In this document: piece by piece, positions 405 to 64,000 of the stretch
Position numbering within the stretch: position 1 is the stretch's first letter
Layout of the letters: each line of letters opens with the position of its first letter
Origin: Planctomycetota bacterium
GTDB taxonomy: Bacteria; Planctomycetota; PUPC01; DSUN01
Reading direction: 5' to 3'
DNA length: 64,000 nucleotides
Assembly (NCBI GenBank): GCA_035527715.1
Contig: DATKZY010000187.1
Coordinates: 49,388 to 113,387 of the forward strand
Position numbers and translations under genes: made by a program
Notes under the pieces: model-generated
What the model was told of the DNA's origin: nothing
The model's input: the letters and a program-made list of their open reading frames with translations, nothing else
Databases searched by the model: none

Positions 405-1394
405 CTATTTTTCCTCACGTATTCCCTCGGTCGCTTCGGCTTTCCACGCGACGACGTTGTGCTGGGGCAGGATGGGCCGGGCGATGGCCTCGAAAGGGCG
501 GACGAGGGCCCGCGCTAGGGCGCTCCGCGGCAGGAGCGAGCGGATGGCGAAGTGCGGCCCGAACGCCGCGCGCAGCAGGCGCCGCAACTCGAAGAGCGAG
601 AGCAGGCGCTTGCTGCGATAGGGCTTTCCCCGGCGCCATCGCACGTAGGGCTCCATCCAGCGCCGCGGCAGCCAGCCCACGCCCCAGAGCTTCACGTGCG
701 GCTCGCGCGTGAGCAGGGTGAAGCGGTTGGGCGAGTTGAAGAAGAACAGGCCGCCCGGGCGGAGGGCCCGGCGCACCTCGCCCAGCAGCCGCTCCTGGTC
801 GGGCACGTGCTCGACGACGTCGGTCGCGTTCGCCAGGTCGAAGCTCTGCTCGGCGAAGGGGAGCTCGAGCGCGGAGGCGGCGACGAAGGCCACGTTCGCG
901 ATCCCGGCCTCGGCGAAGCGCTTCTTCGCCAGCAGCAGATCGGTCAGCAGGATGTCGAGTCCGACCGCCAGGCGGGCCCGCCGCGCCAGGGCGAAGAGGG
1001 CGCTCCCCGCGCCGCAGCCGACGTCGAGGGCCGAGGCGTCCATCGGCACCGTGCGTCCGGCCGCCGCGGCGTGGCAGGCGATCTGTTCCCAGCGGCGCGC
1101 GCCGCGCTGGGGGGCCTCGGCCTCGTGCTTGTCCCAGAGGCGCTGAAGGGCGTCCCCCTCCTCGCGGTGATACAGCCCCCAAAGCTCGCGGTAGGAGCTG
1201 TCGAGCCAGCGGCGGATCACCTCGAGGCAGAAGTCCCCGTGGCGCGGGCCTTCGGGCGGGTCGGGCCGGAAGTCCGGGATGCCGTGGATGACCTCGAAGG
1301 TGCGCGGGCACGCGGGGCAGGTAAGCCCCGCCGAGGCCACTGTGAGCGCGCCCCGGCACGCTGGGCATCGGAGGAGGGGAAGCAGCTCCGCCAT
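405..1394 (-). CDS. Class I SAM-dependent methyltransferase with an N-terminal Trm112-like zinc ribbon
   Basis: 329 aa. The N-terminus has CPACRG...CPACP. A DVGCGAGS SAM-binding motif is present, together with Methyltransf_11-like motifs II and III (LPFAEQSFD, LRPGG). The ATG at 1394 is preceded directly by a heptamer array. Confidence 0.8.
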   Translation of the reverse strand: MAELLPLLRCPACRGALTVASAGLTCPACPRTFEVIHGIPDFRPDPPEGPRHGDFCLEVIRRWLDSSYRELWGLYHREEGDALQRLWDKHEAEAPQRGARRWEQIACHAAAAGRTVPMDASALDVGCGAGSALFALARRARLAVGLDILLTDLLLAKKRFAEAGIANVAFVAASALELPFAEQSFDLANATDVVEHVPDQERLLGEVRRALRPGGLFFFNSPNRFTLLTREPHVKLWGVGWLPRRWMEPYVRWRRGKPYRSKRLLSLFELRRLLRAAFGPHFAIRSLLPRSALARALVRPFEAIARPILPQHNVVAWKAEATEGIREEK

Positions 1395-1414
1395 TTCGGA
1401 TTCCGGATTTCGGA
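1395..1414. repeat. Heptanucleotide tandem array: coding-strand ATCCGAA ATCCGGA ATCCGAA, three units, directly abutting the ATG of the 405..1394 gene
   Basis: The plus strand reads TTCGGAT TCCGGAT TTCGGAT. On the coding (minus) strand the last unit runs straight into the start codon (…ATCCGAAATG). Confidence 0.8.
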
Positions 1415-1574
1415 TGTCGCTCTCTCCCGGTGGCCTTCGCGTTGAGGGTACGCGCCGTCCGCGCCCCTGTCAAGTTCCCCTCGCCGCTTGCGAAAGGGCA
1501 TGGGCCGTGGTATTATCCCTTCCGCGTTGATGTACGGCGTCTCCTCGCCCCTCCGGAGCTTGCAGGGAGCATCC

Positions 1575-7073: not shown

Positions 7074-8073
7074 GCCTGCCGAGCGCGATGCCCCGACGAG
7101 TTGTCCGCTCTGCGGCGGGACGGAGCGGCGGCGCCTCGTGACGAAGCGCGGCTGCGACGTCGTGCGCTGCCGCGACTGCCGCCTTGTCTACGTGTGGCCG
7201 CCCCCGTCGCGCGAGGAGGTCGAGGCCCTTTATTCGGCGGGGGACTACCACGCCGTCATTGACGAGTCGGAGCGGCGGCGCTACTTCGCCCGACGGCTTC
7301 GCCAGATCGAGAAGTTCGCCCCGCGGGGTGGCCGCATCCTTGACGTCGGCTGCTCGAAGGGCTACTTCCTGGAGGCGGCCCGGGCCAACGGCTGGGAGGC
7401 CGTGGGGGTCGAGTTGAACCGCCGAGCCGTCGAGGACGCGCGAGCGCGCGGTCTCGACGTGCGGCATGGCGACCTGTGCGACCTGGCGCTCGACGAGGAG
7501 AGCTTCGACGTGGTGACCCTCTTCGACGTCCTCGAGCACACGGCGGCCCCGCGGGCGCTGCTGGCCGCGTGCCGCGCGGTGCTGCGGCTCGGGGGCCTCC
7601 TGGTGGTGACGACGCCCGACATTGGGGGCCTGGTGCCGCGCGTCACCTACGGCCTCTTCGCCTGCACGCTGGGGGCGTGGGAGCATCCGACCCCGCCCGG
7701 CCACCTCGTGCAGTTCTCGCGGCGCACGCTGCGGCGGGCACTTGGGGCCGAGGGCTTCGAGGCCCTGCGGGAGCGCTCCGAGCACATCCCCATCGCCTAC
7801 AGCGTCGGGAAGCTCGAGAACTCGATCATGGCCGTGTTGGCCGGCCGCCACCGGAACCCCCCGACGGCCGATGGCCGACGGCCGACGGCGGACGGAAGAC
7901 GACAGTCGCCCCTCCGTCGGGTGCCGCGATACGGGGTGCGCGCGCTGTCGTGGCTGGCCATCGGGCTGGCCGGCCTGGCGGCGCGCGCCACGGGTTGGGG
8001 CGATTCGATGTTCGTCGCTGCACGGCGCACCCAGACCGAGGGCGGAAGGAGCGAGCCGCTTGAGAGCAGCTAG
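7066..8073 (+). CDS. Class I SAM-dependent methyltransferase with an N-terminal Cys4 zinc ribbon
   Basis: CPLCGG...CRDCR is followed by ILDVGCSKGYF (motif I) and LRLGGLLVVTTPD. It overlaps the previous gene by 8 nt. It also contains a 21-nt tandem duplication encoding PTADGRR twice at about 7858..7899. Confidence 0.8.
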   Translation: MGEPAERDAPTSCPLCGGTERRRLVTKRGCDVVRCRDCRLVYVWPPPSREEVEALYSAGDYHAVIDESERRRYFARRLRQIEKFAPRGGRILDVGCSKGYFLEAARANGWEAVGVELNRRAVEDARARGLDVRHGDLCDLALDEESFDVVTLFDVLEHTAAPRALLAACRAVLRLGGLLVVTTPDIGGLVPRVTYGLFACTLGAWEHPTPPGHLVQFSRRTLRRALGAEGFEALRERSEHIPIAYSVGKLENSIMAVLAGRHRNPPTADGRRPTADGRRQSPLRRVPRYGVRALSWLAIGLAGLAARATGWGDSMFVAARRTQTEGGRSEPLESS

Positions 8074-8250
8074 CGGCGAGCAGACATGGGCAGTTCAGGG
8101 GCAGGGACGAGGCCGGAGAGAAGAATTGCATACTTGTTCAAGTATGCAATTCTCTCCGTCAGGCACGGGCGTGCCGGGGGCGCGTCCGGGACGGCCCACG
8201 CTCCAGTCAACGGTCTCCCTGGAGCGAGAGAAGGAGTTGGCCGTTTGAAC

Positions 8251-8278
8251 TCCGCACTCCGCACTCCGCACTCCGCAA
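8251..8278. repeat. Heptanucleotide tandem array TCCGCAC x3 + TCCGCAA
   Basis: tccgcactccgcactccgcactccgcaa lies just upstream of the GTG at 8287, the probable start of the GT-C-like gene. Confidence 0.8.
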
Positions 8279-8286
8279 TCTCACAC

Positions 8287-10434
8287 GTGGCGCCTTTCGC
8301 CGTGCTGGCGGGGGTGGTGCTTCTCACGGCGATCGTGGTGCCGCCGTTCTTCGAGACGCCGGTGTACGACGACTGGTCGTTCGCGCCGCAGGTGCTGCGG
8401 CTGGCCGAGACGGGGCAGCTCCGCTACATGGGCTACAACGTGCCCTGCCTGCTGAGCCAGGTGCTCCTGGGGGCGGGGTGGCTGCGGATCGTCGGGTCGA
8501 GCTTCTCGAACCTGCGGATCCTCAACCTGATGGTCAGCGCGGCGGGCGCGTGCGGGGCGTACGGGGTGCTGGCGGAGCTGGGTTGCGGGCGCCGCAGGAG
8601 CCTGCTGGGCGCGCTCGTGCTTGTGGCGAACCCGCTCTACGTGTTCTTCTCCTACGCCTGGATGACCGATGTGTTCTCATTGGCTTTCATGCTCCTCGCG
8701 TTGTGGGCCTACCTGGTCGCCTTCAGGCGGGGAGGGGGTTGGGCTGCCGCCCTCGCGGCGTTCCTGGCGTTGGTCGCGATCCTCGACCGGCAGACGATGG
8801 CGATGCTGCCGGTGGGGGTGCTGTTGTACCTCGTGTGGCGGCGGCGCGGTGCGCCGTGGGGCCTCTGGGCCGCGGCGGTCGCGCCGCTCGTCCTGGGCTT
8901 CGTGGGGGTGAAGCTCGCCGAGATGATCCCCGACTACCAGAAGACGGGGCTGCCGATGCCGTCGCTCCGCAAGCAGTACGCGGCCGCTCCGCGTGCGGTG
9001 AGCATCGGCCTGGGGTATCTGGCCTTCTCGCTCCTGCCGCTGGGCCTGGCGTACGGGCGGGCGCTGTGGCGTGCCGCGGCGCAGCGGCCCGGGCGCGCGG
9101 TGGTGGCGGTGGTGAGCGCGCTGCTGCTCGTGGCGGCCCTCGGCGCCCCGGGGCCGCGGCTGACGGAGGGCCGGCCGTGGACGTTCGACCTGGCCGCGGT
9201 TGCCTCGCGGGCGAGCGTGCCGTGGATCGAGCGCGGCAGCGGGCTCCTCATCGGGCTGGGCACCGACGTGTTGCCTCGGTCGGCGGGGCTGGCGATCGGC
9301 GCCGCGTCGTGCGTGTGGCTGGCGGTCCTGCTGGTGGCGTCGTGGGGCCGACTGGTCGCGCCCCGGCTGGCGGGCCGAGTGTGCCTCGAGCCACGGGGCG
9401 CGCGGTTCGGCCGGGTGGCCGCCGTGGCCCTCGCCGCGGCGCTGGCGCTCCTCGTGGCCGGGCTGCCGCTGCTGAAGCACCTGGCGTCGAGGCTGGTCAC
9501 CGTCGCCTACGAGCGGGGCGCCGGGCGGGCGATGGGCCTCGACTACTGGCTCGCGACGGCTCGCGTGGCGACGGTCCACGCGGCGTTGGTCCTGGGCGCG
9601 GTGTTGGCGTTCGGCCTCAGCGAGTTGGGTTGGCAGGCGGCCGCGCGGCGCTCCGCGGCTTGGGCGGGCCGGCTCCGGGGCGTGTGGGTGCTGTGGGGCT
9701 TTGTCGAGCTCTTCGTCCTGGCGGTGCTCGTGGGCTTCGTCGGCGGCTTCGTCGGCGTGGTCGTGCTCCGGTGCCTCTGGCGCTGGCGCCGTGGGAAAGC
9801 GGAAATCCGGAATCCGGAATCCGAAATCCGAAACGGGGAGTCGGGGCCACTGCCCGACGGGCGAGCGTGGCTCGTGCTCCTGCCCGCAGGCATCTACGCC
9901 GTGTTCCTCGTCGGGTTGATGAGTCGCTGGGACATCTTTCCCCGGTACTTCCTGCCGCTGCTCGTGCCTGCCGCGCTGCTGGGTCTCGTCGTCGGGCGCG
10001 GGGCCAGGCCGTCGTGGCTCGCGCCCGGTCTGGCGTTCGCCGCCTTCCTTGTCTACGCGTGGGTGCGGACGGACCTCTACGTGACGCGGGTCGTGGCGAC
10101 GGAGCGGCTGCGTCGGGAGCTGGTCGCCGAGGGCATCCCGCCGAAGCAGATCCGCGCGGGCCTGGAGATTGACGGCTGGCACTGGCGCTGGTACTGCCTC
10201 GACCACCCCGACGAGGGCGGCACGACGACGGGGCAGGCGTGGTGGCCCGGAGGCCTGACCCCCGCACTGGTGGAGAACTACGTCATCTCCGACCGTCCCG
10301 CCCCCTTGAACATGTGGGGGATAGACCTGTCGAACTACGAAGTCCTGCGCACGGAGGCGGTTCGGGCGAGGCTCTGGCCCCGCCCGTGCCCGCTCTACGT
10401 GATGCGCCGCGTGCCGCTCCTGGCCCCCGACTAA
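8287..10434 (+). CDS. Large polytopic membrane protein, GT-C/GT39-like glycosyltransferase family
   Basis: The translation from the GTG at 8287 begins VAPFAVLAGVVLLTAIVVPPFF and has many TM helices. The track ORF starts at 8086, but its first 67 codons look non-coding and include the heptamer array. The protein contains an in-frame heptamer array at 9801..9834 (see that entry). Confidence 0.6.
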   Translation: MAPFAVLAGVVLLTAIVVPPFFETPVYDDWSFAPQVLRLAETGQLRYMGYNVPCLLSQVLLGAGWLRIVGSSFSNLRILNLMVSAAGACGAYGVLAELGCGRRRSLLGALVLVANPLYVFFSYAWMTDVFSLAFMLLALWAYLVAFRRGGGWAAALAAFLALVAILDRQTMAMLPVGVLLYLVWRRRGAPWGLWAAAVAPLVLGFVGVKLAEMIPDYQKTGLPMPSLRKQYAAAPRAVSIGLGYLAFSLLPLGLAYGRALWRAAAQRPGRAVVAVVSALLLVAALGAPGPRLTEGRPWTFDLAAVASRASVPWIERGSGLLIGLGTDVLPRSAGLAIGAASCVWLAVLLVASWGRLVAPRLAGRVCLEPRGARFGRVAAVALAAALALLVAGLPLLKHLASRLVTVAYERGAGRAMGLDYWLATARVATVHAALVLGAVLAFGLSELGWQAAARRSAAWAGRLRGVWVLWGFVELFVLAVLVGFVGGFVGVVVLRCLWRWRRGKAEIRNPESEIRNGESGPLPDGRAWLVLLPAGIYAVFLVGLMSRWDIFPRYFLPLLVPAALLGLVVGRGARPSWLAPGLAFAAFLVYAWVRTDLYVTRVVATERLRRELVAEGIPPKQIRAGLEIDGWHWRWYCLDHPDEGGTTTGQAWWPGGLTPALVENYVISDRPAPLNMWGIDLSNYEVLRTEAVRARLWPRPCPLYVMRRVPLLAPD
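9801..9834. repeat. Heptanucleotide tandem array GGAAATCC GGAATCC GGAATCC GAAATCC GAAAC, in-frame inside a CDS
   Basis: Period-7 repeat of the same GGAATCC/ATCCGAA family found at 1395. It encodes AEIRNPESEIRNGE. Confidence 0.8.
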
Positions 10435-17974: not shown

Positions 17975-18023
17975 AAATGCGGATTGCGGAATCCGGATTG
18001 CGGAATGCCGAATGCCGAATGTG
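17975..18023. repeat. Heptanucleotide tandem array of 7 units: AATGCGG ATTGCGG AATCCGG ATTGCGG AATGCCG AATGCCG AATGTGG
   Basis: It starts 3 nt after the TGA of the epimerase gene and fills the spacer before the GT4 gene. Confidence 0.85.
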
Positions 18024-24929: not shown

Positions 24930-26128
24930 TGCCTACTCCGCGATCCGCAACCCGCGACCCGCAGTCCCGGTCAGGCCCTCTCCGTGTCCTCGTCCTCGCC
25001 GGTATCTTCCCCTACGAGGGGAACGAGACGTTCGGCCTGTCCACCTGTCGCCGCACCATCGAGCTGGCGCGGCTGTGCGACGTCAAGGTGCTGGCGCCGA
25101 CGTGGCGGCGGGGCCTCCCGGCCAGGGAGGCGTTGGCCGGCGTGGACGTGCTCCGCCCGCGGTGGCGCCGCGTGCCGAAGCTGGGCGTGCTTGTGGACGG
25201 CTTTCGCTACGCGGCGCGCGCGGCCAGGGCGATTGACGCCATCCGGCCCCCCTTCGACTTCGACCTGATAGATGCCCACTGGCTCTACCCCGACGCCTTC
25301 GCCGCCGTGCGCCTCGGGCGGCGGTTCGGCAGGCCGGTCGTGGTCACAGGCCGCGGCAGCGATGTGGACGAGTTTCTCGTCCGCTGGCCCGTGCGATACT
25401 TCGCCCGTGCGGCGCTTCGCGGGGCGGCCCAGATCGTTGCCCTCACGCGCCACCACGAGCAGAAGATGATCGAGGCCGGCGCCCCGGCCGGGCGAATCGC
25501 CGTGATCGCCAACGGCGTGGACACGGCGCTCTTCCGCCCGGGCGACCGCGGGGAGGCGCGGCGGGCGTTGGGCCTGCCGCCCGACGGTTTCGTGCTGTTC
25601 TCCGCCGGCGCACTCGTCGAGGACAAGGGCCACCACCACCTCATCCGGGGGCTTTCGCTCCTCGGCAGCGAGGCCCAGGCGAGCCTCTACATCGCTGGGC
25701 CAGGCTCGTACCGGGAGACGCTCCTGCGGCTCATCGAGTCGCTGAGCCTTCGGGACAGGGTCGCCCTCCTCGGGCGCGTCGAGCAGCGGCAGATGCCGCT
25801 CTGGTATCAGGCGGCGGACTTCTTCTGCTTCGGGAGCTATCACGAGGGCTGCCCAAACGTGGTTCTGGAGGCTGTCGCGTGCGGCACCCCGGTTGTCTCG
25901 ACCAACGTCGGTGGCATCCCCGACCTCGTCGAGGAGGGGCGCTCGGGCATTCTCTTCAAGCCGCGCTCCGACGAGGCATTCGCCTCCGCCCTTCGCACGG
26001 CGCTGGAGCGGCCCTGGGACCGGGCCGCGATTGCCGCCCTGGGCGCCCGACGCTCCTGGGCACACGTCGCCGCCGAATACCTGGCCCTCTTCGAGCGGCT
26101 CTTGGCAGGCAAGCATGGAGCAGTCTGA
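24926..26128 (+). CDS. GT4-family glycosyltransferase
   Basis: The C-terminus has FSAGALVEDKGHHHL...CFGSYHEGCPNVVLEAVACGTPVVST. It overlaps the neighbouring genes at both ends. Confidence 0.85.
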   Translation: MMPTPRSATRDPQSRSGPLRVLVLAGIFPYEGNETFGLSTCRRTIELARLCDVKVLAPTWRRGLPAREALAGVDVLRPRWRRVPKLGVLVDGFRYAARAARAIDAIRPPFDFDLIDAHWLYPDAFAAVRLGRRFGRPVVVTGRGSDVDEFLVRWPVRYFARAALRGAAQIVALTRHHEQKMIEAGAPAGRIAVIANGVDTALFRPGDRGEARRALGLPPDGFVLFSAGALVEDKGHHHLIRGLSLLGSEAQASLYIAGPGSYRETLLRLIESLSLRDRVALLGRVEQRQMPLWYQAADFFCFGSYHEGCPNVVLEAVACGTPVVSTNVGGIPDLVEEGRSGILFKPRSDEAFASALRTALERPWDRAAIAALGARRSWAHVAAEYLALFERLLAGKHGAV

Positions 26129-27221
26129 AATCGGAAATCGAAGAACCCTGCTTCTCCTCACAGTGGATACCGAGTCGAGCATGGCCGGCGTGCGCCCGCT
26201 GCCGCCCGAGGCGATGGTGTGGGGGTCACCTCTTCATTTCGCACATGGCGGCTATGTGCCAAATGAAGATGTGACCCCTGGCGGCACCTGGGGCATCGAG
26301 CGGCTGATGGACTGCTTCGACGCCCGCGGCCTCAAGGCCACGTTCTTCGTGAGCACGCTGGAGGAACTCCACCACGGTGAGGAGCACGTGAAACGCATTT
26401 GCTCGGCCGTTCTGGACCGCGGCCACGACGCGCAGCTCCACCTCCACCCCAACTGGTGGAAGGGCGATTTCGCCCGCAAACGGCTCACCGACTACTCGCT
26501 CGAGGAGCAGACCGAGCTCGTGCGTCTCGCCAAGGAGGCATATCGCCGCGCGTGCGGCTCGGAGCCCGTAGCGCATCGCGCCGGCGGGCTGCTCGTGAAT
26601 GCCGACACGTTCCGCGCCCTGGCGGCGAATGGGATTCCGATGGATTCCTCGGTCGCCATCGGCCACATCCCCTATGAGCTTGGCGAAGGGGTGACGCCGC
26701 CCAACGTGCCCCGACGGCTCGGCTCCGTCATCGAGGTGCCCGTCACTACCTTTGCCCAGATGCGCCTCGGCCCCTGGGCGCCGCGGCGCCACTTCGACCT
26801 GAATGCCGATTCCCTCTCGGAGCTGAAGCTCGTGGTGGACCGCGCCGTGCAGCAAGGCGCGGCGGCGGCGTGCCTGCTGATGCACAGTTTCTCGCTCATT
26901 GCTCGGAACCGCGAGGGGACGGAGTTCAGGCCCGCCGAAGCCGAGTGCCGCAAACTCGAGCGATTCCTCGACTATATTGCCACGCGTGGGGATGTGGAGG
27001 TCGTGACCGTTCGCGAGGTGGCCCGCCGCATCGAGGGCGAGCCCGCGCTGCTCGCGGGGCCGGACCTCGAGGCGACCGCAGGCGTCTTCCGCACGTGGCG
27101 GCGGAGCTGCGAACGCTTCGGCGCGGGCTGGAAGAGCAAGGCATTCGCGCTGGGCCTCCCCCTCGGGCTGGCGGCCCTTGCGGCGCTGGTGATAGGAGCC
27201 ATCTGGTGGCTGACGTCCTGA
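26115..27221 (+). CDS. Polysaccharide deacetylase-like protein (divergent NodB-like LTVDTE type). Palindromic element A3 is inserted in-frame.
   Basis: It begins MEQSEIGNRRTLLLLTVDTESS and contains HLHPNWW plus a C-terminal TM. ATG 26115 overlaps the previous gene by 14 nt, and ATG 26181 is an alternative start. A heptamer array at 26124..26144 spans the junction. Confidence 0.6.
   Translation: MEQSEIGNRRTLLLLTVDTESSMAGVRPLPPEAMVWGSPLHFAHGGYVPNEDVTPGGTWGIERLMDCFDARGLKATFFVSTLEELHHGEEHVKRICSAVLDRGHDAQLHLHPNWWKGDFARKRLTDYSLEEQTELVRLAKEAYRRACGSEPVAHRAGGLLVNADTFRALAANGIPMDSSVAIGHIPYELGEGVTPPNVPRRLGSVIEVPVTTFAQMRLGPWAPRRHFDLNADSLSELKLVVDRAVQQGAAAACLLMHSFSLIARNREGTEFRPAEAECRKLERFLDYIATRGDVEVVTVREVARRIEGEPALLAGPDLEATAGVFRTWRRSCERFGAGWKSKAFALGLPLGLAALAALVIGAIWWLTS
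26124..26144. repeat. Heptanucleotide array TCTGAAA TCGGAAA TCGAAGA overlapping the TGA stop of the GT4 gene
   Basis: It is period-7 and belongs to the same family as the 28251 and 59637 arrays. Confidence 0.75.
26222..26278. mobile_element. Palindromic element family A, copy A3, in inverted orientation relative to A1/A4
   Basis: GGGGTCACCTCTTCATTTCGCAC-11 nt-GTGCCAAATGAAGATGTGACCCC. It is in-frame and encodes GSPLHFAHGGYVPNEDVTPG. Confidence 0.8.
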
Positions 27222-28285
27222 AGCTCGCCGCGCGGCAGGCCGTGGCGTTCCTGGCGGTGCGCTCGCGGCTGTGGCCCGTCGTGCCGAAGGGCCGCGCCCT
27301 CGTGCTTCGCTACCACCGGGTCGCCCGTGCCGGCGCGCCGCCCGTGCCGCTCGCGGTGCCTGCGGCGGAGTTCGAGGCCCAGTTGCGCTTTCTCGCCGCG
27401 CGCGCTCACGCGATGACCGCGGGCGAGATCGCCGCCGCAGCGGCCGGCGGCCAGCCCTTGCCCCCCAACGCCGTCGCTATCACCTTCGACGACGGCTACG
27501 AGGACAACTGCTCGCAGGCCCTCCCGCTCCTCCAGCGCTACGGCCTGCGAGCCACCTTCTTCGTCACCGCAGGCTGGATCGGCACCGAGAACGTCCTGTG
27601 GTGGGACCGGCTCCACGACTACATCCGCCAGGCGGCGGCGCTGGCCGCGCGGCCCATAGACTACCAGGACCTCCCGAAGCCGCTGGTCGCCGCACTGGCG
27701 GCCGCGGACCTCCGCACCGGCGCCGGCGCCGCGCGGCTCGAGCGCGACCTCGCCGCGGCGCTCGGCGGCCTGGCCCTCACGCCCGAGGAGACCGATCTCC
27801 TCGTCGAGCGCGTCGCCTCCGCGCTGGGGTCCGACGTGGCCGACCCCGAGCCCTACCGCCCCATGACCTGGGACCAGGTGCGCGAACTGCACCAGGCGGG
27901 CATGGAGATCGGCTCGCACACCATGTCGCATGGCCGCCTGGTCCACGTGCCTGCCGAGCGCGCCTACGAGGAGCTGGAACGGTCAAAGCAGGCTATCGAG
28001 CGGGAGTTGGGTGCCCCCGTCTCGCTCCTCGCCTATCCTGCCGGGAGCCACAACCAGGACGTCGTGGACCTCGCGGTGGAGACGGGCTACGAGGCCGCCT
28101 TCACGACGGCCAGCGGCCCCGTGGCCCCGGGCGACGACCTGTTCCGCCTCCGCCGCATCGGCGTCTGGGCGGGCGGCTATCGTGGGGCGCTCAACAGCTT
28201 TTCTGATTCCGTCTTTGGCCTCCAGCTCGGACGCTTGGCGCGTCAGCCAAGCGGAAATCGGAAACCGGAAACCGGCAATGCCTAG
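27206..28285 (+). CDS. Polysaccharide deacetylase (NodB/CE4) family protein
   Basis: [19 protein letters not shown] and LAYPAGSHN are present. It starts at GTG 27206, overlapping the previous gene by 16 nt, so the start is uncertain. Confidence 0.75.
28251..28278. repeat. Heptanucleotide array GCGGAAA TCGGAAA CCGGAAA CCGGCAA ending exactly on the A of the ATG at 28278
   Basis: Four units. It encodes the C-terminal tail ([11 protein letters not shown]) of the upstream gene and forms the immediate 5' context of the next start codon. Confidence 0.85.
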
Positions 28286-29261
28286 GGTCAGCGTGGTGAT
28301 CCCAGCGTTCAACGCCGAGCGGTATCTCCGCGAGACGCTGGAGTCGGTGCTGGCCCAGACGTACCGGGACTTCGAGGTGGTGGTGGTGGACGATGGGTCG
28401 TCGGACGGCACGGCGGAGCTGGCAGCCAGCTTTGGCGAGCCCGTGCGGTGCATCCGCCAGGCCAACGCCGGGCCGTCCGCCGCCCGCAACCGCGGCATTC
28501 GCGAGGCCCGGGGCGAGCTGATCGCCTTCGTGGATTCCGACGACCTGTGGCTGCCCGAGAAGCTGGCCGAGCAGGTGCCGCTCTTCGATGGTGGCACAGG
28601 CTTCCAGCCTGTGGGCCTCGTCTACTGCCACGCAGAGCGGGTGGACGCCGAGGGGCGGCCGCTGCCCACGGCGCAGGCGCCGAAGCCGGTCGGCCGGGTT
28701 CCCGGGGACTTCCTTTTCCGCAACCACTGCCCGACCTCGGCCGCAGTGATCCGCCGCGAGTGCTTCGAGCGGTGCGGCTACCTCCCCGAGGACATGATTT
28801 GGGCGGAGGACTGGCATCTGTGGCTGCGGATCGCCCGCCGCTACGAGTTCGCCGCCGTTCCGCGCGTCCTCGTGCGGCACCGCGTCCACTCGGGCGCGCT
28901 CACGAAGCACATTGAGAAGGCGTATCTGGGCGCACGCCGCGTGCTCGAGACGGCGCTGGAGCCGGGCGACCCGCCGGAGTTGCGCGCCGCGCGGCGAAGC
29001 GGCCTCCACCGCCTCGACCGCAACCAGGCCCTCAACCTGCTGGCTTTGGGCGAGACGCGCGCGGCCCGCCGCTGCTTCCGCCGGGCCATCGGCAACGGGC
29101 CGGGCGACCCGCACGTCTGGGCCGGCTGCGCCCTGAGCCTTCTCCCCGCGGCTCTGCGGAGGCCCCTGATGCGCGCGTGGAAGCGCCGCGTGCCCTGGGT
29201 GCCCTGGGGCCCCGACGGACGGGCCGAGGCCCGAAGGTGGATGGACAGTGCAGGCGATTAA
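28278..29261 (+). CDS. GT2-family glycosyltransferase (soluble type)
   Basis: [17 protein letters not shown]...[12 protein letters not shown]...[16 protein letters not shown]-ttcca-GCCTGTG hairpin is inserted in-frame at 28595..28613. Confidence 0.85.
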
Positions 29262-34420: not shown

Positions 34421-34434
34421 AATGGGAGAAGGCA

Positions 34435-34560
34435 GTGCGAAATGTAAAATGCAAAAGGCAAAGTGCAAAATCCAGAACACACCTGGGGCTAGGGGAGTAA
34501 GCGACATCGGGGCTCACCATTTTGCCTTTTGCACTTTGCCTTCTGCATTTTGCATTGGGA
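34435..34560. promoter_or_regulatory. AT-rich long imperfect inverted repeat immediately upstream of the B12-radical-SAM gene. It could be an operator/promoter or an RNA hairpin.
   Basis: The arms are gtgcgaaatgtaaaatgcaaaaggcaaagtgcaaaatcc and cattttgccttttgcactttgccttctgcattttgcattggga, separated by about 45 nt. It is the only strongly AT-rich patch in a 70% GC locus. Confidence 0.4.
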
Positions 34561-34570
34561 TTTCTCCGCG

Positions 34571-35953
34571 ATGAAGGTTGCGCTGATCCAGCCGCCAATG
34601 GATTCGGACTACCCGCCGCTGAGCCTCGGCTCGCTGGCGGCGTATCTGGCGTCGAAGGGGCACACGCCGCGCGTCTTCGACCTCCAGGTGCCGGCGCAGC
34701 GGGCCGAATGGCCGCGGGCGTTGGCGGAGTTCGCGCCCCAGCTCGTCGGCGTCACGGCGATGACCCCCACCATCGCCGCCGCGGCCGAGGTCGGTCGCAC
34801 CTGCAAGCAGGCCCTCCCCGACGCCACACTCGTCCTCGGCGGCTATCACGTGAGCTTCCTGCCCGAGGAGACGATGCGGCGCTACCCTGCCTTCGACGTG
34901 GGGGTGATCGGCGAGGGCGAGGTGACGCTGCACGAGCTGGTCGAGGCACTGGACGCGGGCCGCGAGTTGGACCAGGTGAGCGGGCTGATCCTCCGCCGTG
35001 GCGACGGCCTGGTGACGACCCCGCCGCGCGCGCGCATCCAGGACCTGGACGCCCTGCCCTGGCCCCACGAGCACTACGACCTCGGCCACTACCTGTGGTA
35101 CGGCGGCTACACGGGGCGCTGGACGTTCAAGTGCGCGAGCGCCATCGTCTCGCGCGGCTGCCCGTTTCGCTGCCGCTTTTGCGCCTCGCAGCGCTTCTGG
35201 TCGAAGCGTTACCTCGTCGGCTCGCCCGAGCACGTGGTGGACGAGATGCGGTGGCTGGCCCGCCACGGCGCGCGGAGCGTGTACTTCCGCGACAGCACGT
35301 TCAACGTCAAGAGGAAATGGCTCCGCGAGTTCTGCGCGGCGAAGCGGCGGGCGGGCCTCCGCATGCGCTGGCTGTGCAACAGCCGCGTGGACACGCTGGA
35401 CGAGGAGCAGCTCACGCTGATGGCCGAGGCGGGCCTCGAGGCCCTCTACTTCGGCGTCGAGAGCGGCAGCCAGCGCATCCTCGATTACTACAACAAAGGC
35501 GTCACCGTCGAGCAGACCCGCGAGGCATTCCGCCTCTGCCACAAGTACCGCGTCGCCACGGCGGCCTACTTCATGATCGGCGCGCCCATCGAGACGCGGG
35601 CCGACATCGAGGAGAGCCGCAAGCTCGCCCGCGAGCTGCGGGCGAAGTACACCTACTGGTTCATCTACACGCCGCTGCCGGGCGCCCCGCTTTACGACGA
35701 CTTCGTCGAGCGGGGCTACAAGCCCGACTTCGAGCACTTCGTCTTCAGCCGTGCGACGATTCCCGTGGGCGACCTGGCCCCCGAGGAGCTGGAGGCCCTC
35801 CACCACCAGCTCGTCGCCGAGTTCCGCCGCAAGACCACGCGGGGCGATGTCTGGCGGCGACGCTGGGAGATTCTCCGGTCCGTCCGCTCCTGGCGCGACG
35901 TGCGCCACCTGGGCCGCAAGCTCGCGCGGCGAATGGGGCTAGGTGGCCAGTAG
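34571..35953 (+). CDS. B12-binding domain radical SAM protein (class B radical SAM)
   Basis: The N-terminal B12-binding-like region is MKVALIQPP...VGVTAMT. SRGCPFRCRFC is the CxxxCxxC motif. The track ORF start at 34529 lies inside the AT-rich repeat, so the ATG at 34571 is preferred. Confidence 0.85.
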   Translation: MKVALIQPPMDSDYPPLSLGSLAAYLASKGHTPRVFDLQVPAQRAEWPRALAEFAPQLVGVTAMTPTIAAAAEVGRTCKQALPDATLVLGGYHVSFLPEETMRRYPAFDVGVIGEGEVTLHELVEALDAGRELDQVSGLILRRGDGLVTTPPRARIQDLDALPWPHEHYDLGHYLWYGGYTGRWTFKCASAIVSRGCPFRCRFCASQRFWSKRYLVGSPEHVVDEMRWLARHGARSVYFRDSTFNVKRKWLREFCAAKRRAGLRMRWLCNSRVDTLDEEQLTLMAEAGLEALYFGVESGSQRILDYYNKGVTVEQTREAFRLCHKYRVATAAYFMIGAPIETRADIEESRKLARELRAKYTYWFIYTPLPGAPLYDDFVERGYKPDFEHFVFSRATIPVGDLAPEELEALHHQLVAEFRRKTTRGDVWRRRWEILRSVRSWRDVRHLGRKLARRMGLGGQ

Positions 35954-37525: not shown

Positions 37526-37630
37526 GATGGTTGGATGAATGGATGACTGGATGATTGTCAGAGGAGCCTTGCCGCCTTCCCATTCATCCATCCATCCACC
37601 CATCCATTCATCCTCCTCCAGGAGGCGCAT

Positions 37631-38647
37631 GTGAGCCGCTGGGCCAGGCAACTCGTCGTCACCGTGTCCGTCGAGCCCGACGATCCGTCGGTCGTGGGCC
37701 GGTCGGGAGCGTATCGCTCACTCGACGGGCTTGAGCGGTTCCACGAGCTGTGCCGACGCTACGGCGTGCGGCCGACGTATCTCGCCACGTACTCGGCGGC
37801 GGGGGAGACCCGGTGCGTGGACCTCTTCCGCTCCTGCGGCGACGAGGCCGAGGTCGGGGCGCACCTGCACCCCGAGGAGGTGCCGCCCATCGCCGAGGGC
37901 GAGCGTGGCAACCACACGCTGCGCCCGAGCGCGGTCGAGCCCGGCCGCCTGCGGGAAAAGCTGGCCAACCTCGTCGAGCGCGTGGCGGAGGCGGCGGGGC
38001 GGCGGCCCACCGCGTATCGCGCCGGCTTCTTCGACCTCACGCCCAGCCAGGTCGTCGCGCTTGTTGGGCTGGGGATCGAAGCCGACTCCAGCCTTGGCCC
38101 CCTGGAAAAGGTCGGCGGCAAGTACCCGTTTCTTCGCGTTCCCTTTGAGCCATACGTCGCTGACCCCGCGAACCCGTGCACAGAGGCTCACGCGTCACGC
38201 GTCACGCGTCACGCATCACTCGTCGAGGTTCCCCTCACCAGCGTCTTCCGCCGTCCTTTTCCCAGGCGGCTTTTTGGTGTATACTTCGGGATGCCGGGTG
38301 TCGTGCGAGGGGCGCTGCGCGCGCTCGGCGCCGCCGAGGTGCTGCGGTTCCGCCCGGCAGTGGCCTCCGCCGACGACTTGCTGGCCGTGTGCCGGCGCAC
38401 GGAGCGGCTGGGCGTGCCCGCGGTCATGACCATTCACTCGAACGAGTTGTGGCCGGGCACGAGCGCGGGGTCACATCTTCATTTGGCACCTGGCGGCGAA
38501 GTGCGAAATGAAGATGTGACCCCCGAGGCGGCCTGTGCCGCCTACTTCGAGCGCCTCGAGCGGGTGTTCGCGCATTGCCAGGCGGACGGCTGGGCGAGCC
38601 GCACGCTCACGGAGATCGCCCGCGCAACCCGGGGGAATGCGGGATGA
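37631..38647 (+). CDS. Polysaccharide deacetylase-like protein (LTVDTE-type paralog of 26115..27221). It carries palindromic element A4 and an in-frame GTCACGC heptamer array.
   Basis: VVTVSVEPDD...HLHPEE. Element A4 encodes GSHLHLAPGGEVRNEDVTPE. The array at 38187..38214 encodes AHASRVTRHAS. Confidence 0.65.
   Translation: MSRWARQLVVTVSVEPDDPSVVGRSGAYRSLDGLERFHELCRRYGVRPTYLATYSAAGETRCVDLFRSCGDEAEVGAHLHPEEVPPIAEGERGNHTLRPSAVEPGRLREKLANLVERVAEAAGRRPTAYRAGFFDLTPSQVVALVGLGIEADSSLGPLEKVGGKYPFLRVPFEPYVADPANPCTEAHASRVTRHASLVEVPLTSVFRRPFPRRLFGVYFGMPGVVRGALRALGAAEVLRFRPAVASADDLLAVCRRTERLGVPAVMTIHSNELWPGTSAGSHLHLAPGGEVRNEDVTPEAACAAYFERLERVFAHCQADGWASRTLTEIARATRGNAG
38187..38214. repeat. Heptanucleotide array CTCACGC GTCACGC GTCACGC ATCACTC, in-frame in a CDS
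   Basis: The same GTCACGC array recurs at 63815..63842 inside the last gene. Confidence 0.8.
38467..38523. mobile_element. Palindromic element family A, copy A4
   Basis: GGGGTCACATCTTCATTTGGCAC-11 nt-GTGCGAAATGAAGATGTGACCCC. It is nearly identical to A1. Confidence 0.8.
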
Positions 38648-45343: not shown

Positions 45344-46258
45344 GTGAATGCGATGAGCTGCGACCTCGAGGAGTACTTCCAGGTGCAGTGCTGCGACGGG
45401 GTGATCGCGCCCGAGGCGTGGGACACCATGCCTTCGCGCCTGGAGCCGAGCACGGAACGGGTGCTGGCGCTGCTCGACGAGGCAGGCGTGAAAGCGACCT
45501 TTTTCGTCCTGGGCTGGAACGCCGAGCGGCACCCCGACCTGGTGCGGCGCATCGCGGCTGCGGGCCACGAGATCGCCTCGCACGGCTACGCGCACAAGAT
45601 GATCCCCGACCAGAGGCCCGAGGAGTTCCGGGCCGACGTGTGCCGGGCCAAAGCGCTGCTGGAGGACCTCACGGGCCGGCCCGTGCTGGGCTACCGGGCG
45701 CCGACCTTCTCGATCACCGAGCGCTCGCGGTGGGCCATCGCCATCCTGGCCGAGGCCGGCTACCGCTACGATTCGAGCGTCTTCCCCATCCGCCACGACC
45801 GCTACGGCATCCCCGACGCCCCGCGATTCCTGCATGAGCTGAACGGGGCGGAGTGCGGAATGCGGGGTGCGGAATGCGGGGTGCGGAATGCGGAAGGGAC
45901 GGACAGGCCGCACCTCATTGAGTTCCCGCCCACGACTCTGCGGGTGCTGGGCACGAACGTGCCGGTGGCGGGCGGCGGCTACCTGCGGCTCCTTCCCGCG
46001 CGGCTGATTCTGGCCGCGCTGCGCCGCGTGAACCGCCTGGGGCACCCGGCCATCGTGTACTTTCATCCCTGGGAGCTGGACCCCGAGGCGCCGCGGCTGC
46101 CGCTGCGGGGCCTGCGCCGCTTCCGCCACTACGTGGGCCTTGCCCGCGCGGCCGCCAAGTTGCGGCTCCTGCTGCGCGGCCTCGCCTTCACCACTGCCGC
46201 CACGGTCGTCGGGCACTGGGTGGCCGCGCACCACAAGGGGGAAACAGCGAATGGGTAG
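45344..46258 (+). CDS. Exosortase-system-associated polysaccharide deacetylase (TIGR03006-like, DUF3473 + NodB). It carries an in-frame 49-nt heptamer array.
   Basis: VNAMSCDLEEYFQV...ATFFVLGW...ASHGYAHK...LGYRAPTFS matches the XrtA/PEP-CTERM-locus deacetylase family. An alternative start is ATG 45352. The array at 45848..45896 encodes GAECGMRGAECGVRNAEG. Confidence 0.8.
   Translation: MNAMSCDLEEYFQVQCCDGVIAPEAWDTMPSRLEPSTERVLALLDEAGVKATFFVLGWNAERHPDLVRRIAAAGHEIASHGYAHKMIPDQRPEEFRADVCRAKALLEDLTGRPVLGYRAPTFSITERSRWAIAILAEAGYRYDSSVFPIRHDRYGIPDAPRFLHELNGAECGMRGAECGVRNAEGTDRPHLIEFPPTTLRVLGTNVPVAGGGYLRLLPARLILAALRRVNRLGHPAIVYFHPWELDPEAPRLPLRGLRRFRHYVGLARAAAKLRLLLRGLAFTTAATVVGHWVAAHHKGETANG
45848..45896. 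repeat. Heptanucleotide array of 7 units: GCGGAGT GCGGAAT GCGGGGT GCGGAAT GCGGGGT GCGGAAT GCGGAAG, in-frame in a CDS
   Basis: It also reads as a 14-mer (GTGCGGAATGCGGG) repeated three times. Confidence 0.85.
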
Positions 46259-59636: not shown

Positions 59637-59657
59637 CTGAAATCGGCAATCGCAAAT
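59637..59657. repeat. Heptanucleotide array TCTGAAA TCGGCAA TCGCAAA, intergenic
   Basis: Same unit family as 26124 and 28251. It lies about 160 nt upstream of the 59816 gene. Confidence 0.7.
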
Positions 59658-59696
59658 TTTTCCAAGCCCCCCTCCCCCACTGCCCCCCGCCCCGCG

Positions 59697-59706
59697 CCCC
59701 CCCCCC
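59697..59706. repeat. Homopolymeric C10 tract within a C-rich stretch upstream of the giant secreted gene
   Basis: ccccctcccccactgccccccgccccgcgCCCCCCCCCCgtgggg, 110 nt upstream of ATG 59816 and about 85 nt upstream of TATATAT. Confidence 0.7.
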
Positions 59707-62800: not shown

Positions 62801-64000
62801 CACTACGGCGTGAAGCTCGACGCCGAGGCCTGGGACCGCTTGGTCACCTGGATTGACCTCAACACCCCCTACTATGGCACCTGGACCGACATGGGCCACA
62901 ACCCTGGCAAACAGCGCGAGCGGCGCCTCGAGCTGGCCCGGCTCTACGCCAACCTCGACACCGACCCCGAAGCCGACGCCGGTCAGCCCCCCGCCAAGCT
63001 CCAGGACCCGACCCCCCCTCCCCTTCCCTCTGCCGTACCCGAACACCGAACACCGAACACCGATGGCCCGGCTTTGGCCGGCTGGCCCTTCGACAAGGCC
63101 GAGGCCCAGCGTCGCCAGGCCGCCTTGGGTGTGGCGACGCGCTCGGTCGAGCTCGCGCCCGGGGTCAAGCTCGACCTCGTCCTCATCCCCGCCGGCGAGT
63201 TCCTCATGGGCGACCCCAGCGGCTCGCCCGACGAGCAGCCCGTCCACCGCGTCAAGATCGAGCGGCCCTTCTGGATGGGCCGCTGCGAGGTCTCCAACGA
63301 GCAGTTCGCCTGCCACGATTCCGCCCACGATAGCCGCGTGGAGGACAAGAATACCTACCAGTTCGGCGTCCACGGCTACCCCTGCAACGAGCCCAAGCAG
63401 CCCGTCGTCCGCCTCTCGTGGCACCAGGCCGTGGCTTTCTGCGAGTGGCTCTCGAAGAAGACCGGCGAGCACGTCACCCTGCCGACGGAGGCCCAATGGG
63501 AGTGGGCCTGTCGGGCAGGGACGGCCACGCCCTTCTGGTATGGTGGCCTCGACGCCGATTTCTCGAAGTGCGCCAACATGAGCGACGCCAAGATGCGCGA
63601 GTTCGCCAGCAACCCCTACACCATCTGGCAGCCCCAGCCCAACGCCACGAAGTACGACGACTGGATTCCCAAGGACACCCGCTTCAACGACGGCTATCTC
63701 GTGGCTGCCCCCATCGGCACCTACCAGCCCAACCCCTGGGGCCTCGCCGACATGCACGGCAACATGGCCGAATGGACCCGCTCACCCCATCGCCCCTACC
63801 CGTCCGACGGTTCGGTCACGCGTCACGCGTCACGCGTCACTGAACCCGCTGCGGCCACGCGCTACGTCGTCCGCGGCGGCTCCTGGCGCGATCGTCCCTA
63901 CCGCTGCACCTCCGCCTATCGCCTCGCCTACCCCGCCTTCCAGCGCCCCTACAACGTCACCTTCCGCATCGTGTCCGAGGGCCTCGTCAAGACCGCGGCG
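59816..64000 (+). CDS. Large secreted multidomain protein, 3'-truncated at the window end: signal peptide, NPCBM-like carbohydrate-binding domain, beta-propeller-like middle, two CXXCH motifs, C-terminal FGE-sulfatase (SUMF1/formylglycine-generating-enzyme-like) domain
   Basis: I translated this by hand from 59816 and found no stop to 64000; GC3 is high throughout. The NPCBM-like part is VKVGWGNLIVNNNHTKAGLRIANKKYEHGFWAHAPSALCF...GSVRFHVLD. CVGCHE and CIGCHN are the CXXCH motifs. FGE motifs include RVKIERPFWMGRCEVSN...HQAVAFCEWLS...RGGSWRDRP. It contains a family-B hairpin at 61262..61290 and a GTCACGC array at 63815..63842. Confidence 0.75.
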   Translation, partial: MSPTEKPMLRACLACVLAMAAFAAEAAAPRRARGAVSLPSAADPAYYVKKATWQETMLASREALATAQAEAPKESAFKPYVTGVIRGGQPAQQISLDVSTLDQLWLLADVGDDNYDSDQAIWGEPTLVARDGTRVPLTTLKPVSVKVGWGNLIVNNNHTKAGLRIANKKYEHGFWAHAPSALCFALGKKYVRFEAWAGIDATATSHGSVRFHVLDKAGRTSDLDALWSLVGRDFPNASREMQWERQDRIWDDDWRPGDLAMLGARYAKCAATRAKSMAAEAQKLAPAVADAVALQKVRELYYRAHTIEENLAKLGDLKFEPLRLALADLIETHGDTYPKGREFLQRLDALEKSASADDKAADPERKAKLVEEFESLKREALLANPLLSFDKLLVVRRSARNLALPANWQGNSCLPRSGLDNEIAILSLRAVGGASLPRVQTLYKPEGGRFVGDVDLHFDADRLLFSSLDAKNKWQVFEMTLKPPAGSQPAGGYPIRQLTGEQPDVDSYDACYLPDGRIMFCSTAPFVGVPCVFGSSHVAMLYRMDADGKNIRQLCFEQDHDWCPAVLNNGRVLYLRWEYTDTPHSQTRILFHMNPDGTEQMEYYGSNSYWPNGVFYARPIPNHPTKVAGIVTGHHGVRRMGELVIFDPGKGRHEASGAIQRIPERGKEVEPIIRDGLVNASWPKFLHPYPLSDKYFLVACQPTAKSLWGLYLVDTFDNMLLLHEEPGYAILEPVPLQKTLKPPVIPDKADPKRKDAVVYMVDVYQGDGLKGVPRGTVKKLRIFSYHFAYHGMGGLLGVVGMDGPWDPKRIVGTVPVESDGSALFRVPANTPISIQPLDAEGKALQLMRSWMTAMPGEVLSCVGCHERQNSSPPARQTLAQARPPAEIEPWRGPARAFSYPREVQPVIDKYCIGCHNGEKRPDGKVAADLRGDKRLADFRLVTPGNGGGNAGRFSVGYGELHRYVRRNGIEGDYHLLTPLEFHADTTELVQLLQKGHYGVKLDAEAWDRLVTWIDLNTPYYGTWTDMGHNPGKQRERRLELARLYANLDTDPEADAGQPPAKLQDPTPPPLPSAVPEHRTPNTDGPALAGWPFDKAEAQRRQAALGVATRSVELAPGVKLDLVLIPAGEFLMGDPSGSPDEQPVHRVKIERPFWMGRCEVSNEQFACHDSAHDSRVEDKNTYQFGVHGYPCNEPKQPVVRLSWHQAVAFCEWLSKKTGEHVTLPTEAQWEWACRAGTATPFWYGGLDADFSKCANMSDAKMREFASNPYTIWQPQPNATKYDDWIPKDTRFNDGYLVAAPIGTYQPNPWGLADMHGNMAEWTRSPHRPYPSDGSVTRHASRVTEPAAATRYVVRGGSWRDRPYRCTSAYRLAYPAFQRPYNVTFRIVSEGLVKTAA
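61262..61290. repeat. Palindromic element family B, second copy: CCTCCCGCGGGTT-cgc-AACCCGCGGGAGG, in-frame within a CDS
   Basis: A 13-bp perfect stem, identical to 33158..33186 except for one compensatory pair (A-T becomes G-C). It encodes KPPAGSQPAGGYP. Confidence 0.75.
63815..63842. repeat. Heptanucleotide array GTCACGC x3 + GTCACTG, in-frame in the FGE-domain gene
   Basis: It encodes SVTRHASRVTEP. The same array occurs at 38187. Confidence 0.8.

Follow-up and report, generated by a model that had tools for sequence, protein, structure and literature searches.

What does it mean that a short tandem repeat ends exactly on a start codon, and does so at two genes of one stretch of DNA? The question is raised by 64,000 nt from a Planctomycetota bacterium (GenBank assembly GCA_035527715.1, contig DATKZY010000187.1, positions 49,388 to 113,387, forward strand; hereafter the window), where an array of heptanucleotides lies between a polysaccharide deacetylase gene and the ATG of a GT2 glycosyltransferase gene, and the same arrangement precedes a methyltransferase gene on the minus strand. 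A first-pass annotation had taken these as two independent cases arguing for function, either as a slippage-tunable spacer or as a recognition site. Both belong, instead, to a population of at least 13 arrays in the window, which lie also inside genes, after stop codons and in inverted pairs. We consider it probable that the array is a heptanucleotide simple-sequence repeat, the local member of a period-7 population that extends over the genome and the clade. The features of the deacetylase/GT2 junction are the following, in window positions.

27206..28285, plus strand: polysaccharide deacetylase gene (Polysacc_deac_1), a public gene call whose open reading frame (ORF) continues through the array
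28232..28253, plus strand: 8-bp hairpin CGCTTGGC-gcgtca-GCCAAGCG at the deacetylase 3' end, directly 5' of the array
28251..28278, plus strand: heptanucleotide array, filling the spacer that separates the GT2 start from the conserved deacetylase end
28278..29261, plus strand: GT2 glycosyltransferase gene with ATG 28278, a 327-aa product and a PF00535 match

Read directly, the plus strand from 28251 to 28278 runs GCGGAAA TCGGAAA CCGGAAA CCGGCAA and is followed by TG; in the phase of the start codon the array is AATCGGA AACCGGA AACCGGC | AATG. Tandem Repeats Finder (TRF) places it at 28252-28275, with period 7, 3.4 copies and 94% matches, and its last unit carries a mismatch. Sequence, TRF and contigs from several sources agree that the array directly 5' of the GT2 ATG is real. 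As for the ATG itself, the PF00535 match of Pfam starts at residue 5 of the product, the orthologue N-termini are conserved as MP[RKETN]V[ST]V, and 12 GT2 orthologues open with M/V/L-P-x-V-S/T-V at the same position, two of the 12 being annotated with an extension of 2-3 residues. On these comparisons ATG 28278 is the true GT2 start.

The deacetylase ORF ends at TAG 28283-28285 and overlaps the GT2 start by the 8 nt ATGCCTAG (ATG-CC-TAG), its last ~12 codons (28247-28282) being translated spacer and array. The view of the array as the C-terminal tail of the deacetylase holds in so far as the ORF does read through, but the tail is not conserved: homologues stop 0-8 codons after a conserved GRLAR/GRLGR (directly in L090, after K in L088, after RGA in L004 and after GDTRRAP in L089; L numbers designate the loci compared). 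Because the homologues end at or near GRLAR, the 12-residue tail is, as judged from them, non-conserved read-through of the spacer and not a functional extension; the spacer frame has no stop, hence the tail, since stop codons are rare in DNA of 70% GC. Read-through to TAG would presumably provide translational coupling from the deacetylase to GT2, and the array would merely occupy the ~30-nt spacer between them. Folding of 80 nt with the hairpin gives -31.8 kcal/mol (z -2.0), the array being predicted unpaired; the hairpin showed no conservation by eye among the orthologues of the GT2 junction, and promoter and terminator scans around the junction gave no matches.

The second site, on the minus strand, comprises the following features.

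405..1394, minus strand: gene of an S-adenosylmethionine (SAM)-dependent methyltransferase with an N-terminal Trm112p-like zinc ribbon, ATG 1394-1392
1395..1415, minus strand: heptanucleotide array ATCCGAA ATCCGGA ATCCGAA, a 5' leader abutting the methyltransferase ATG
1445..1473, minus strand: promoter-like TTGACA - 17 nt - TACCCT upstream of the methyltransferase gene, found by eye and by orthologue comparison

The minus-strand arrangement exists as the annotation described it, only with coordinates that were one base off (array 1415-1395, ATG 1394-1392): the strand reads ATCCGAA ATCCGGA ATCCGAA ATG, and TRF reports 3.9 copies at 1393-1419 with 85% matches. The methyltransferase begins MAELLPLLRCP, its Trm112p match runs from residue 3, and the start motif M-x-L-L-x-L-L-R-C-P is kept in 18 orthologues, by which ATG 1394-1392 is the true start. 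The annotation had made its finding depend on the two starts, and their reassessment upheld both, through the positions of the Pfam and Trm112p matches and the orthologue N-termini. The TTGACA-17-TACCCT element is kept at the orthologous L171, L172 and L174, and at L167 only its TACCCT part lies in the displayed stretch. The consensus promoter scan missed it, its -10 box matching at only 3/6 positions; promoter and terminator scans near this site gave a single match, on the plus strand at 1488-1516, in the divergent region. Given the position of this predicted promoter, the array would lie in a 5' untranslated region (UTR) of ~45 nt.

The window matches the JGI metagenome contig Ga0307379_10000229, and JGI and Logan assemblies contain contigs that are 100% identical over the arrays, from four runs or samples per site and five in all (3300031565, 3300031566, SRR8554511, SRR8554512 and SRR8554643). 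Since independent assemblies are identical, the arrays are not assembly artefacts. The comparison of array length that had been suggested as a check was thus made among metagenome assemblies: no variation in unit number was found in the consensus contigs of the five sources, nor in those of four samples of a relative (L167-170).

These data bear on the idea of a slippage-tunable spacer, that is, a contingency locus acting as switch or rheostat in which gain or loss of a 7-nt unit alters expression or the frame of the upstream ORF. Surface-polysaccharide clusters are a typical home of phase-variable loci, and the genes considered here sit in such a cluster. In silico, removal of one unit or addition of two gives an in-frame fusion of deacetylase and GT2 (682 aa), and removal of two or addition of one moves the deacetylase stop 13 nt into GT2, so that simulated unit changes do alter the frame relation. 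Moreover, PMC12721329 and PMC8262952 describe 7-bp repeats upstream of the Haemophilus influenzae genes hmw1A and hmw2A that act in this way: they are long, perfect and phase-variable, and their length varies in populations and correlates with expression. The arrangement resembles the present one in that a 7-nt repeat lies between promoter and start of a surface-structure gene, but here the tracts consist of 3-4 imperfect units and do not differ between any of the assemblies. The tracts at the two sites (3.4-4 units with 1-3 mismatches) are far from the long perfect tracts of characterised switches, the methyltransferase array, placed in a 5' UTR, has no reading frame that it could shift, and the arrays of this organism are spread over many unrelated genes and not confined to gene classes. 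Rehm et al. were equally negative for the heptamers of Xanthomonas and Nostoc (PMC4692102). We therefore regard a slippage-tunable switch as highly improbable. A programmed fusion or frameshift between deacetylase and GT2 was also considered and rejected; it needs hypothetical alleles with one unit less or two more, none of which was seen among the contigs.

The two arrays are far from alone. In the window the pattern CGGAAANCGGAAA, with at most one mismatch, has 5 matches against 0.14 expected, and at a fixed threshold 8 period-7 arrays were counted against 0.53 expected under a Markov-3 null whose maximum was 3; at the same threshold the window holds no arrays of periods 8-11. TRF finds at least 13 period-7 arrays in the 64 kb, starting at 1393, 7861, 8249, 9802, 17976, 24945, 28252, 34436, 34518, 38188, 45848, 63039 and 63815, and two more occur in L083, in the 10 kb adjoining the window, the DNA of the source genome analysed amounting to 64-74 kb. 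A scan of the whole window against Rfam gave no match at gathering score. Heptanucleotide families named short tandemly repeated repetitive (STRR) sequences were reportedly described in heterocystous cyanobacteria by Mazel et al. in 1990; loci fetched from Nostocales, the STRR positive control, have about the array density of the window (0.17 per kb), and most other bacterial loci have none.

The units fall into few families: AATC[C/G][C/G]N or GGAAT-core, GCGGA[A/G]T, TCACGCG and TGCAAAA. Units GAAATCC/GGAATCC occur at 1393 (minus strand) and 9802, GCGGA[A/G]T at 8249 (as complement), 17976, 45848 and L083 18537, and TCACGCG at 38188 and 63815, while the TGCAAAA-type arrays are arranged as two inverted pairs. 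Coincident unit classes number four among the 13 arrays, where 0.22 would be expected (P = 7e-4). The units contain 42% A+T, against 30% for the genome.

The contexts of the arrays are equally instructive, since they include positions abutting starts, positions 9-14 nt 5' of starts, positions directly after stops (17976 and 34436) and in-frame positions within genes, as that of the L083 18537 array inside an amino oxidase. Arrays that end 9-14 nt upstream of a start are those at 8249, 34518 and L083 18949 and a degenerate one, AATCGCC AATCGGG AATCGCA AGTCGGA, before the gene at L083 19799-20950. Thus two of ~15 arrays abut a start and four more end close upstream, a minority. About 7 of the 13 lie at gene boundaries, the non-coding share being only 3.1-4.6% by public gene calls, and the arrays are strongly enriched there; in so compact an operon, however, "non-coding" is nearly the same as "next to a start codon".

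Is the array kept at these junctions in relatives? Among the matches listed from species-representative genomes there was no close relative, the best being 66% identical, and orthologues of 69-85% identity were obtained by protein search followed by look-up of the contig DNA. At the GT2 junction, L180 (81%) has AATCCCG AATCCCG AATCCCA AATCGCA|AATG-CC-TAG, with the register and the ATGCCTAG overlap of the window and a different unit. L004 has 46 nt ending in GGGGAATCGGC|AATG (AATCGGC|AATG), and the junction of L181 is degenerate. The closest orthologues, L178 (85%) and L179 (84%), carry in its place a hairpin of ~125 nt built of inverted TGGATGA-type arrays; L088 has inverted arrays of the hexamer TGAACG, L089 GAC/GAG triplets, and L090 a plain 24-nt spacer with a GAGG motif. 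On these comparisons the deacetylase/GT2 spacer is very labile between lineages. At the methyltransferase start, L167-170 (77%) read AATCCGG GGGCCGG AATCCGG|AATG and L171 (80%) AATCAAC AGTCAGA AATCGGA|AATG, and L172 (82%, the closest), L173 and L176/177 keep only degenerate purine-rich remnants. L174 (69%) has a perfect AATCAGA x4.4 followed by AATT in place of AATG.

In L174 (3449-3500) the array reaches the position of the methyltransferase start, where ATG has become ATT (AATT GGC CTG...). Either ATT itself may serve as the start there, or a GTG that lies 14 codons upstream in the same frame and has an AGGGGA motif; with the upstream GTG, translation would include the array as an N-terminal extension.

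The turnover is not restricted to the two junctions. The loci of the clade (187 kb) hold 46 period-7 arrays, mostly with units of the GAAATCN/AATCNNN type, and reach about one array per kb (8 in 17 kb of L178, 7 in 6.4 kb of L179). The unit classes GAAATCC, GCGGAGT and near-TCACGCG recur in L174, which contains perfect TGCGGAG x4.3 and GAAATCC x4.7 arrays inside its methyltransferase gene; unit classes of the window recur in L178 and L179 too. Several orthologous proteins have inserts with a period of 7 residues in one and the same loop, and in L178 and L179 most operon spacers are occupied by inverted arrays, whose hairpins lie immediately 5' of the following start. GAAATCC arrays were also seen in a metagenome-assembled genome (MAG) of Acidobacteriota. 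A protein survey with the array peptide (EIRNPKS)x6 returned only 20 short spurious ORFs, one of them in an Acidobacteriota MAG, and says little on distribution.

With these data, the supposition that two chance repeats happen to touch start codons has a practically negligible probability. The arrays are short and the last unit at the GT2 site is mismatched, as chance would allow, but the excess of period 7 and of the pattern, together with recurrence at orthologous loci, already refutes it. The first-pass view that coincidence is the lesser possibility was correct, and is borne out by arrays in the same register in L180 at the GT2 gene and in L167-170, L171 and L174 at the methyltransferase gene. 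In turn, at least three tandem copies, over-representation of period 7, recurring families, position at gene boundaries and turnover between species are all traits of the heptanucleotide long simple-sequence repeats (LSSRs) and STRR-like sequences, to which we would assign the array.

How could such an array come to end on a start codon? Replication slippage would generate and homogenise arrays, which would persist where they are tolerated, either in the short spacers and leaders by starts or as frame-keeping insertions in genes. A tandem array would always end in a partial unit, and here AA or AAT would be the -2..+2 context of the conserved AATG. The selected AATG could thereby act as a fixed 3' anchor and offer a 3-nt microhomology seed for duplication of the 7-nt unit upstream; it would persist as anchor because selection protects the start from decay. 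The AATCGGC|AATG of L004 looks like such a seed.

Several observations weigh against the array being a repeat of this kind and nothing else. Arrays in the same register at both starts, in lineages of 69-81% identity, exceed what is expected of purely neutral short microsatellites and hint at either selection or a strong generator with site specificity. The same few units come back in different species and at sites that are not orthologous, which plain slippage on arbitrary seeds does not predict. The A-rich strand is the sense strand in ~8/9 single arrays of this organism, which fits a role at the RNA level and a mutational asymmetry equally well. The array may substitute for the Shine-Dalgarno (SD) motif, which is absent from both array-preceded genes. 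Lastly, consensus assemblies may hide minority length variants.

In a rival reading, the start-abutting arrays would be selected cis-elements of the mRNA, namely an A-enriched, weakly structured, SD-independent landing pad of the type used by ribosomal protein S1, or a regulator site at which a CsrA-like protein binds the GGA of each unit, a role that has been put forward for the Beggiatoaceae repeat TAACTGA. Among the neighbouring genes, a G-rich SD motif precedes most starts by 5-10 nt, but it is lacking before GT2 and the methyltransferase gene. Their initiation regions (-30 to +30) fold at -14.9 and -12.3 kcal/mol, the mean for 35 genes being -17.5 with a standard deviation of 4.6; the two are only 0.6 and 1.1 standard deviations less structured than this mean, which is not decisive. 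The register kept in several lineages at both genes, the array predicted single-stranded, the A+T enrichment of the units and the purine-rich strand being sense in most CGGAA- or AATC-type arrays speak in the same direction, and PMC4679880 supplies a precedent and a list of candidate binders. Yet the same units occur in frame within genes and after stops, several array units contain no GGA, and units differ by lineage at one and the same site (CGGAAAC vs AATCCCG, ATCCGAA vs AATCAGA). Moreover, the array is missing from the closest methyltransferase orthologue (82%) and from the closest GT2 orthologues (84-85%). The recognition site proposed by the annotation has against it the missing arrays of the closest orthologues and a unit sequence that is not conserved. 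An SD-less translation leader or regulator site is accordingly a possible role of the array by this analysis, and one that we judge unlikely.

The recurrence of few units could alternatively be the work of a dedicated, sequence-specific generator that prefers start sites: a mobile mini-element, targeted template switching or gene conversion between arrays. Identical unit classes do occur at non-orthologous loci and in different species, some arrays in L174, L178 and L179 are perfect over 4-5 units, suggesting recent origin, and whole spacers of the relatives hold stereotyped inverted arrays, with TGGATGA-type hairpins at no fewer than five sites. Against this, neither flanking target-site duplications nor terminal inverted repeats nor associated enzyme genes were seen, and the unit variants grade into each other, as local mutation plus slippage predict. 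The presence of AATCGGG in the unrelated Xanthomonas and of GAAATCC in the Acidobacteriota MAG would be explained by convergent, slippage-prone sequences. Such a generator appears to us improbable.

The array can be compared with heptamer systems already described; a search of the searchable literature turned up no such families from Planctomycetes. Of the LSSRs, heptamers form the most abundant class, for which polymerase slippage has been proposed (Mrazek 2007, as cited in PMC4679880). The closest described example would be the GGGAATC (= AATCGGG) repeats of Xanthomonas, which lie 0-50 bp from ORFs, in some cases overlapping stops or forming inverted pairs, and differ from one related species to another in length and sequence (Rehm et al. 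2015, PMC4692102). These repeats and the GGGGA[T/C]T repeats of Nostoc/Anabaena are, like those here, tandem 7-nt units of few families per genome that vary between species at one intergenic site and have no tie to gene functions. Xanthomonas shares besides the high GC of the host, the position near ORF ends including stop overlap, the occasional inverted pairs and a nearly identical core, AATCGGG as compared with AATCGGA, AATCCGG and AATCGGG here. In contrast to both groups, the arrays here have GG instead of GGG or GGGG, are short (3-7 units) and often lie in frame in genes, and two of them reach precisely to a start codon, as they do in several lineages. A G-quadruplex was ruled out, as the units contain at most GG (CGGAAAC, ATCCGGA) and no G3 runs. 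The cyanobacterial STRR sequences are likewise dispersed heptamer families, shared between genera, mostly intergenic and of matching density in Nostocales loci, although with other units and in another phylum, the genome here being GC-rich. In marine Beggiatoaceae, sets of 2-6 copies of TAACTGA lie a few nt upstream of starts, some copies are found inside ORFs, and a post-transcriptional role has been proposed (MacGregor 2015, PMC4679880). There the single unit TAACTGA, which is not among the array units of the window, dominates and related heptamers are rare, whereas here there are several families, of which a minority abut starts. The kind of element is thus already known from cyanobacteria, Xanthomonas, Burkholderia and Beggiatoaceae.

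The remaining arrays of the window, all on the plus strand, are these.

7861..7901, plus strand: CCGACGG x5, in the 3' part of a methyltransferase ORF
8249..8277, plus strand: perfect ACTCCGC x4.1 (complement GCGGAGT), 9 nt 5' of GTG 8287 of a PMT_2 gene
9802..9833, plus strand: GAAATCC/GGAATCC x4.6, in frame in a PMT_2 membrane protein, encoding EIRNPESEIRN
17976..18021, plus strand: AATGCGG-type x6.6, beginning 4 nt past the stop TGA 17970-17972
24945..24963, plus strand: CCGCAAC x2.7, 16 nt past ATG 24929, the start called for a GT4 gene
34436..34556, plus strand: inverted pair of TGCAAAA x5, a ~46-nt loop and CATTTTG x5.6, a ~30-bp hairpin ending 14 nt before ATG 34571
38188..38224, plus strand: TCACGCG x5.3, of doubtful coding status
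45848..45895, plus strand: GCGGAAT/GCGGGGT x6.9, in frame in a deacetylase DUF3473 domain
63039..63063, plus strand: perfect CCGAACA x3.6, in-frame linker of a large NPCBM/HZS-alpha/FGE-domain protein
63815..63840, plus strand: perfect GTCACGC x3.7 (unit as at 38188), in-frame loop of an FGE-sulfatase domain

Within genes, the CCGACGG array is kept at the orthologous L176 (1744-1779, a relative ~71% identical), the other arrays not being conserved in this manner, and it may encode a selected peptide repeat. The array at 45848-45895 is an exact 16-residue insertion (the GAECGMRGAECGVRNAE region) with respect to a paralogue of 44% identity. The ACTCCGC array falls inside the N-terminus of the PMT_2 protein if TTG 8245 is taken as start. 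Likewise, the public JGI call puts the start of the GT4 gene at ATG 18005, which falls within the 17976..18021 array, whose units contain ATG; between 17976 and 18080 the array is followed by a hairpin, TGTGGCACAG...CTGTGCTGCCACA, and GTG 18079 (giving MLQFVDALLRGGAE) is a more plausible start with a better fit to the N-termini of GT4 proteins. For gene callers, starts placed inside arrays, such as ATG 18005 and TTG 8245, are likely miscalls, as are the long N-terminal extensions of P0004, P0005 and P0015. The TCACGCG array is crossed by a public call for a hypothetical protein of 338 aa (37631-38647) without Pfam match, which is doubtful: the stretch 38100-38330 looks non-coding, the enclosing ORF having low GC at third codon positions and being followed by a terminator-like ...cccaggcggctttttggtg.

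Inverted arrays form elements of their own. The hairpin at 34436..34556 folds at -58.5 kcal/mol (z -5.1) and belongs to a composite element present in two copies, at 34427-34573 of the window and on the minus strand of L083 at 18933-19062, each with ~5 TGCAAAA-type heptamers, a loop of ~45 nt and ~5 TTTTGCA-type heptamers, and each ending 13-14 nt before an ATG. The gene downstream is a radical SAM gene in the window and an amino oxidase gene in L083. At the latter site the element is an insertion, because the syntenic L176 has only a 4-nt spacer. In a further, dispersed family of intergenic hairpins, arrays of TGGATGA type are combined with their complement (CATCCAT...), after which come TCCTCCAGGAGG and the start of the next gene. 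This family was found at 37526-37613 of the window, upstream of 5746, 8001 and 16052 in L178 and upstream of 1395 and 4666 in L179, that is, at differing operon junctions in three species of the clade, in which it resembles intercistronic repetitive extragenic palindromic (REP) sequences. A palindromic element, GAAAAGGGGACAGGTACGTTTT...AAAACGTACCTGTCCCCTTTTC, follows the deacetylase gene of L087 (~5060-5180). Its translation (EKGTGSFF...KGACPLF) also forms an in-frame insertion within one loop of P0122 and P0123, both GT2 orthologues, and the element has the look of a small palindrome, mobile or REP-like, that coding DNA can tolerate. Within 59620-59706 of the window, a degenerate run GAAATCG GCAATCG CAAAT and then a 40-nt C-rich tract (GCCCCCC-like, 59666-59706) precede the large NPCBM/HZS-alpha/FGE-domain ORF that starts after 59804.

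As to the genes around the arrays, window positions 1-39000 and L083 form one large, tightly packed cluster for polysaccharide modification, syntenic in L176 and L178. It contains many GT2, GT4 and PMT_2 glycosyltransferases and at least six polysaccharide deacetylases; SAM methyltransferases and a Wzx-like flippase are encoded there too, as are radical SAM enzymes, both B12-binding ones and one of SPASM type.

On a wider reading, the small vocabulary of heptamers (AATCSSN/GGAAT, GCGGAGT, TCACGCG, TGGATGA and TGCAAAA) would be actively generated or selected as a modular system of cis-elements, with the GT2 and methyltransferase arrays as parts of a post-transcriptional network. We hold this to be quite unlikely. 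If it were true, the single arrays abutting AATG would be SD-independent translation leaders that a regulator can address, the inverted arrays would serve as hairpins between cistrons that control the stability of mRNA segments, and spill-over of units into genes would give rise to the peptide inserts with a period of 7 residues.

Taken alone, the finding is that of an ordinary repeat in an operon spacer, and annotation of the array as a regulatory device is unwarranted. Considered with its population, it extends the phenomenon of heptamer repeats to an uncultured Planctomycetota lineage of 70% GC, with units shared across species and arrays absorbed into proteins as in-frame loops. Moreover, the two orthologous series in which the array remains anchored at the start while its unit drifts provide natural test cases for an effect on translation initiation.

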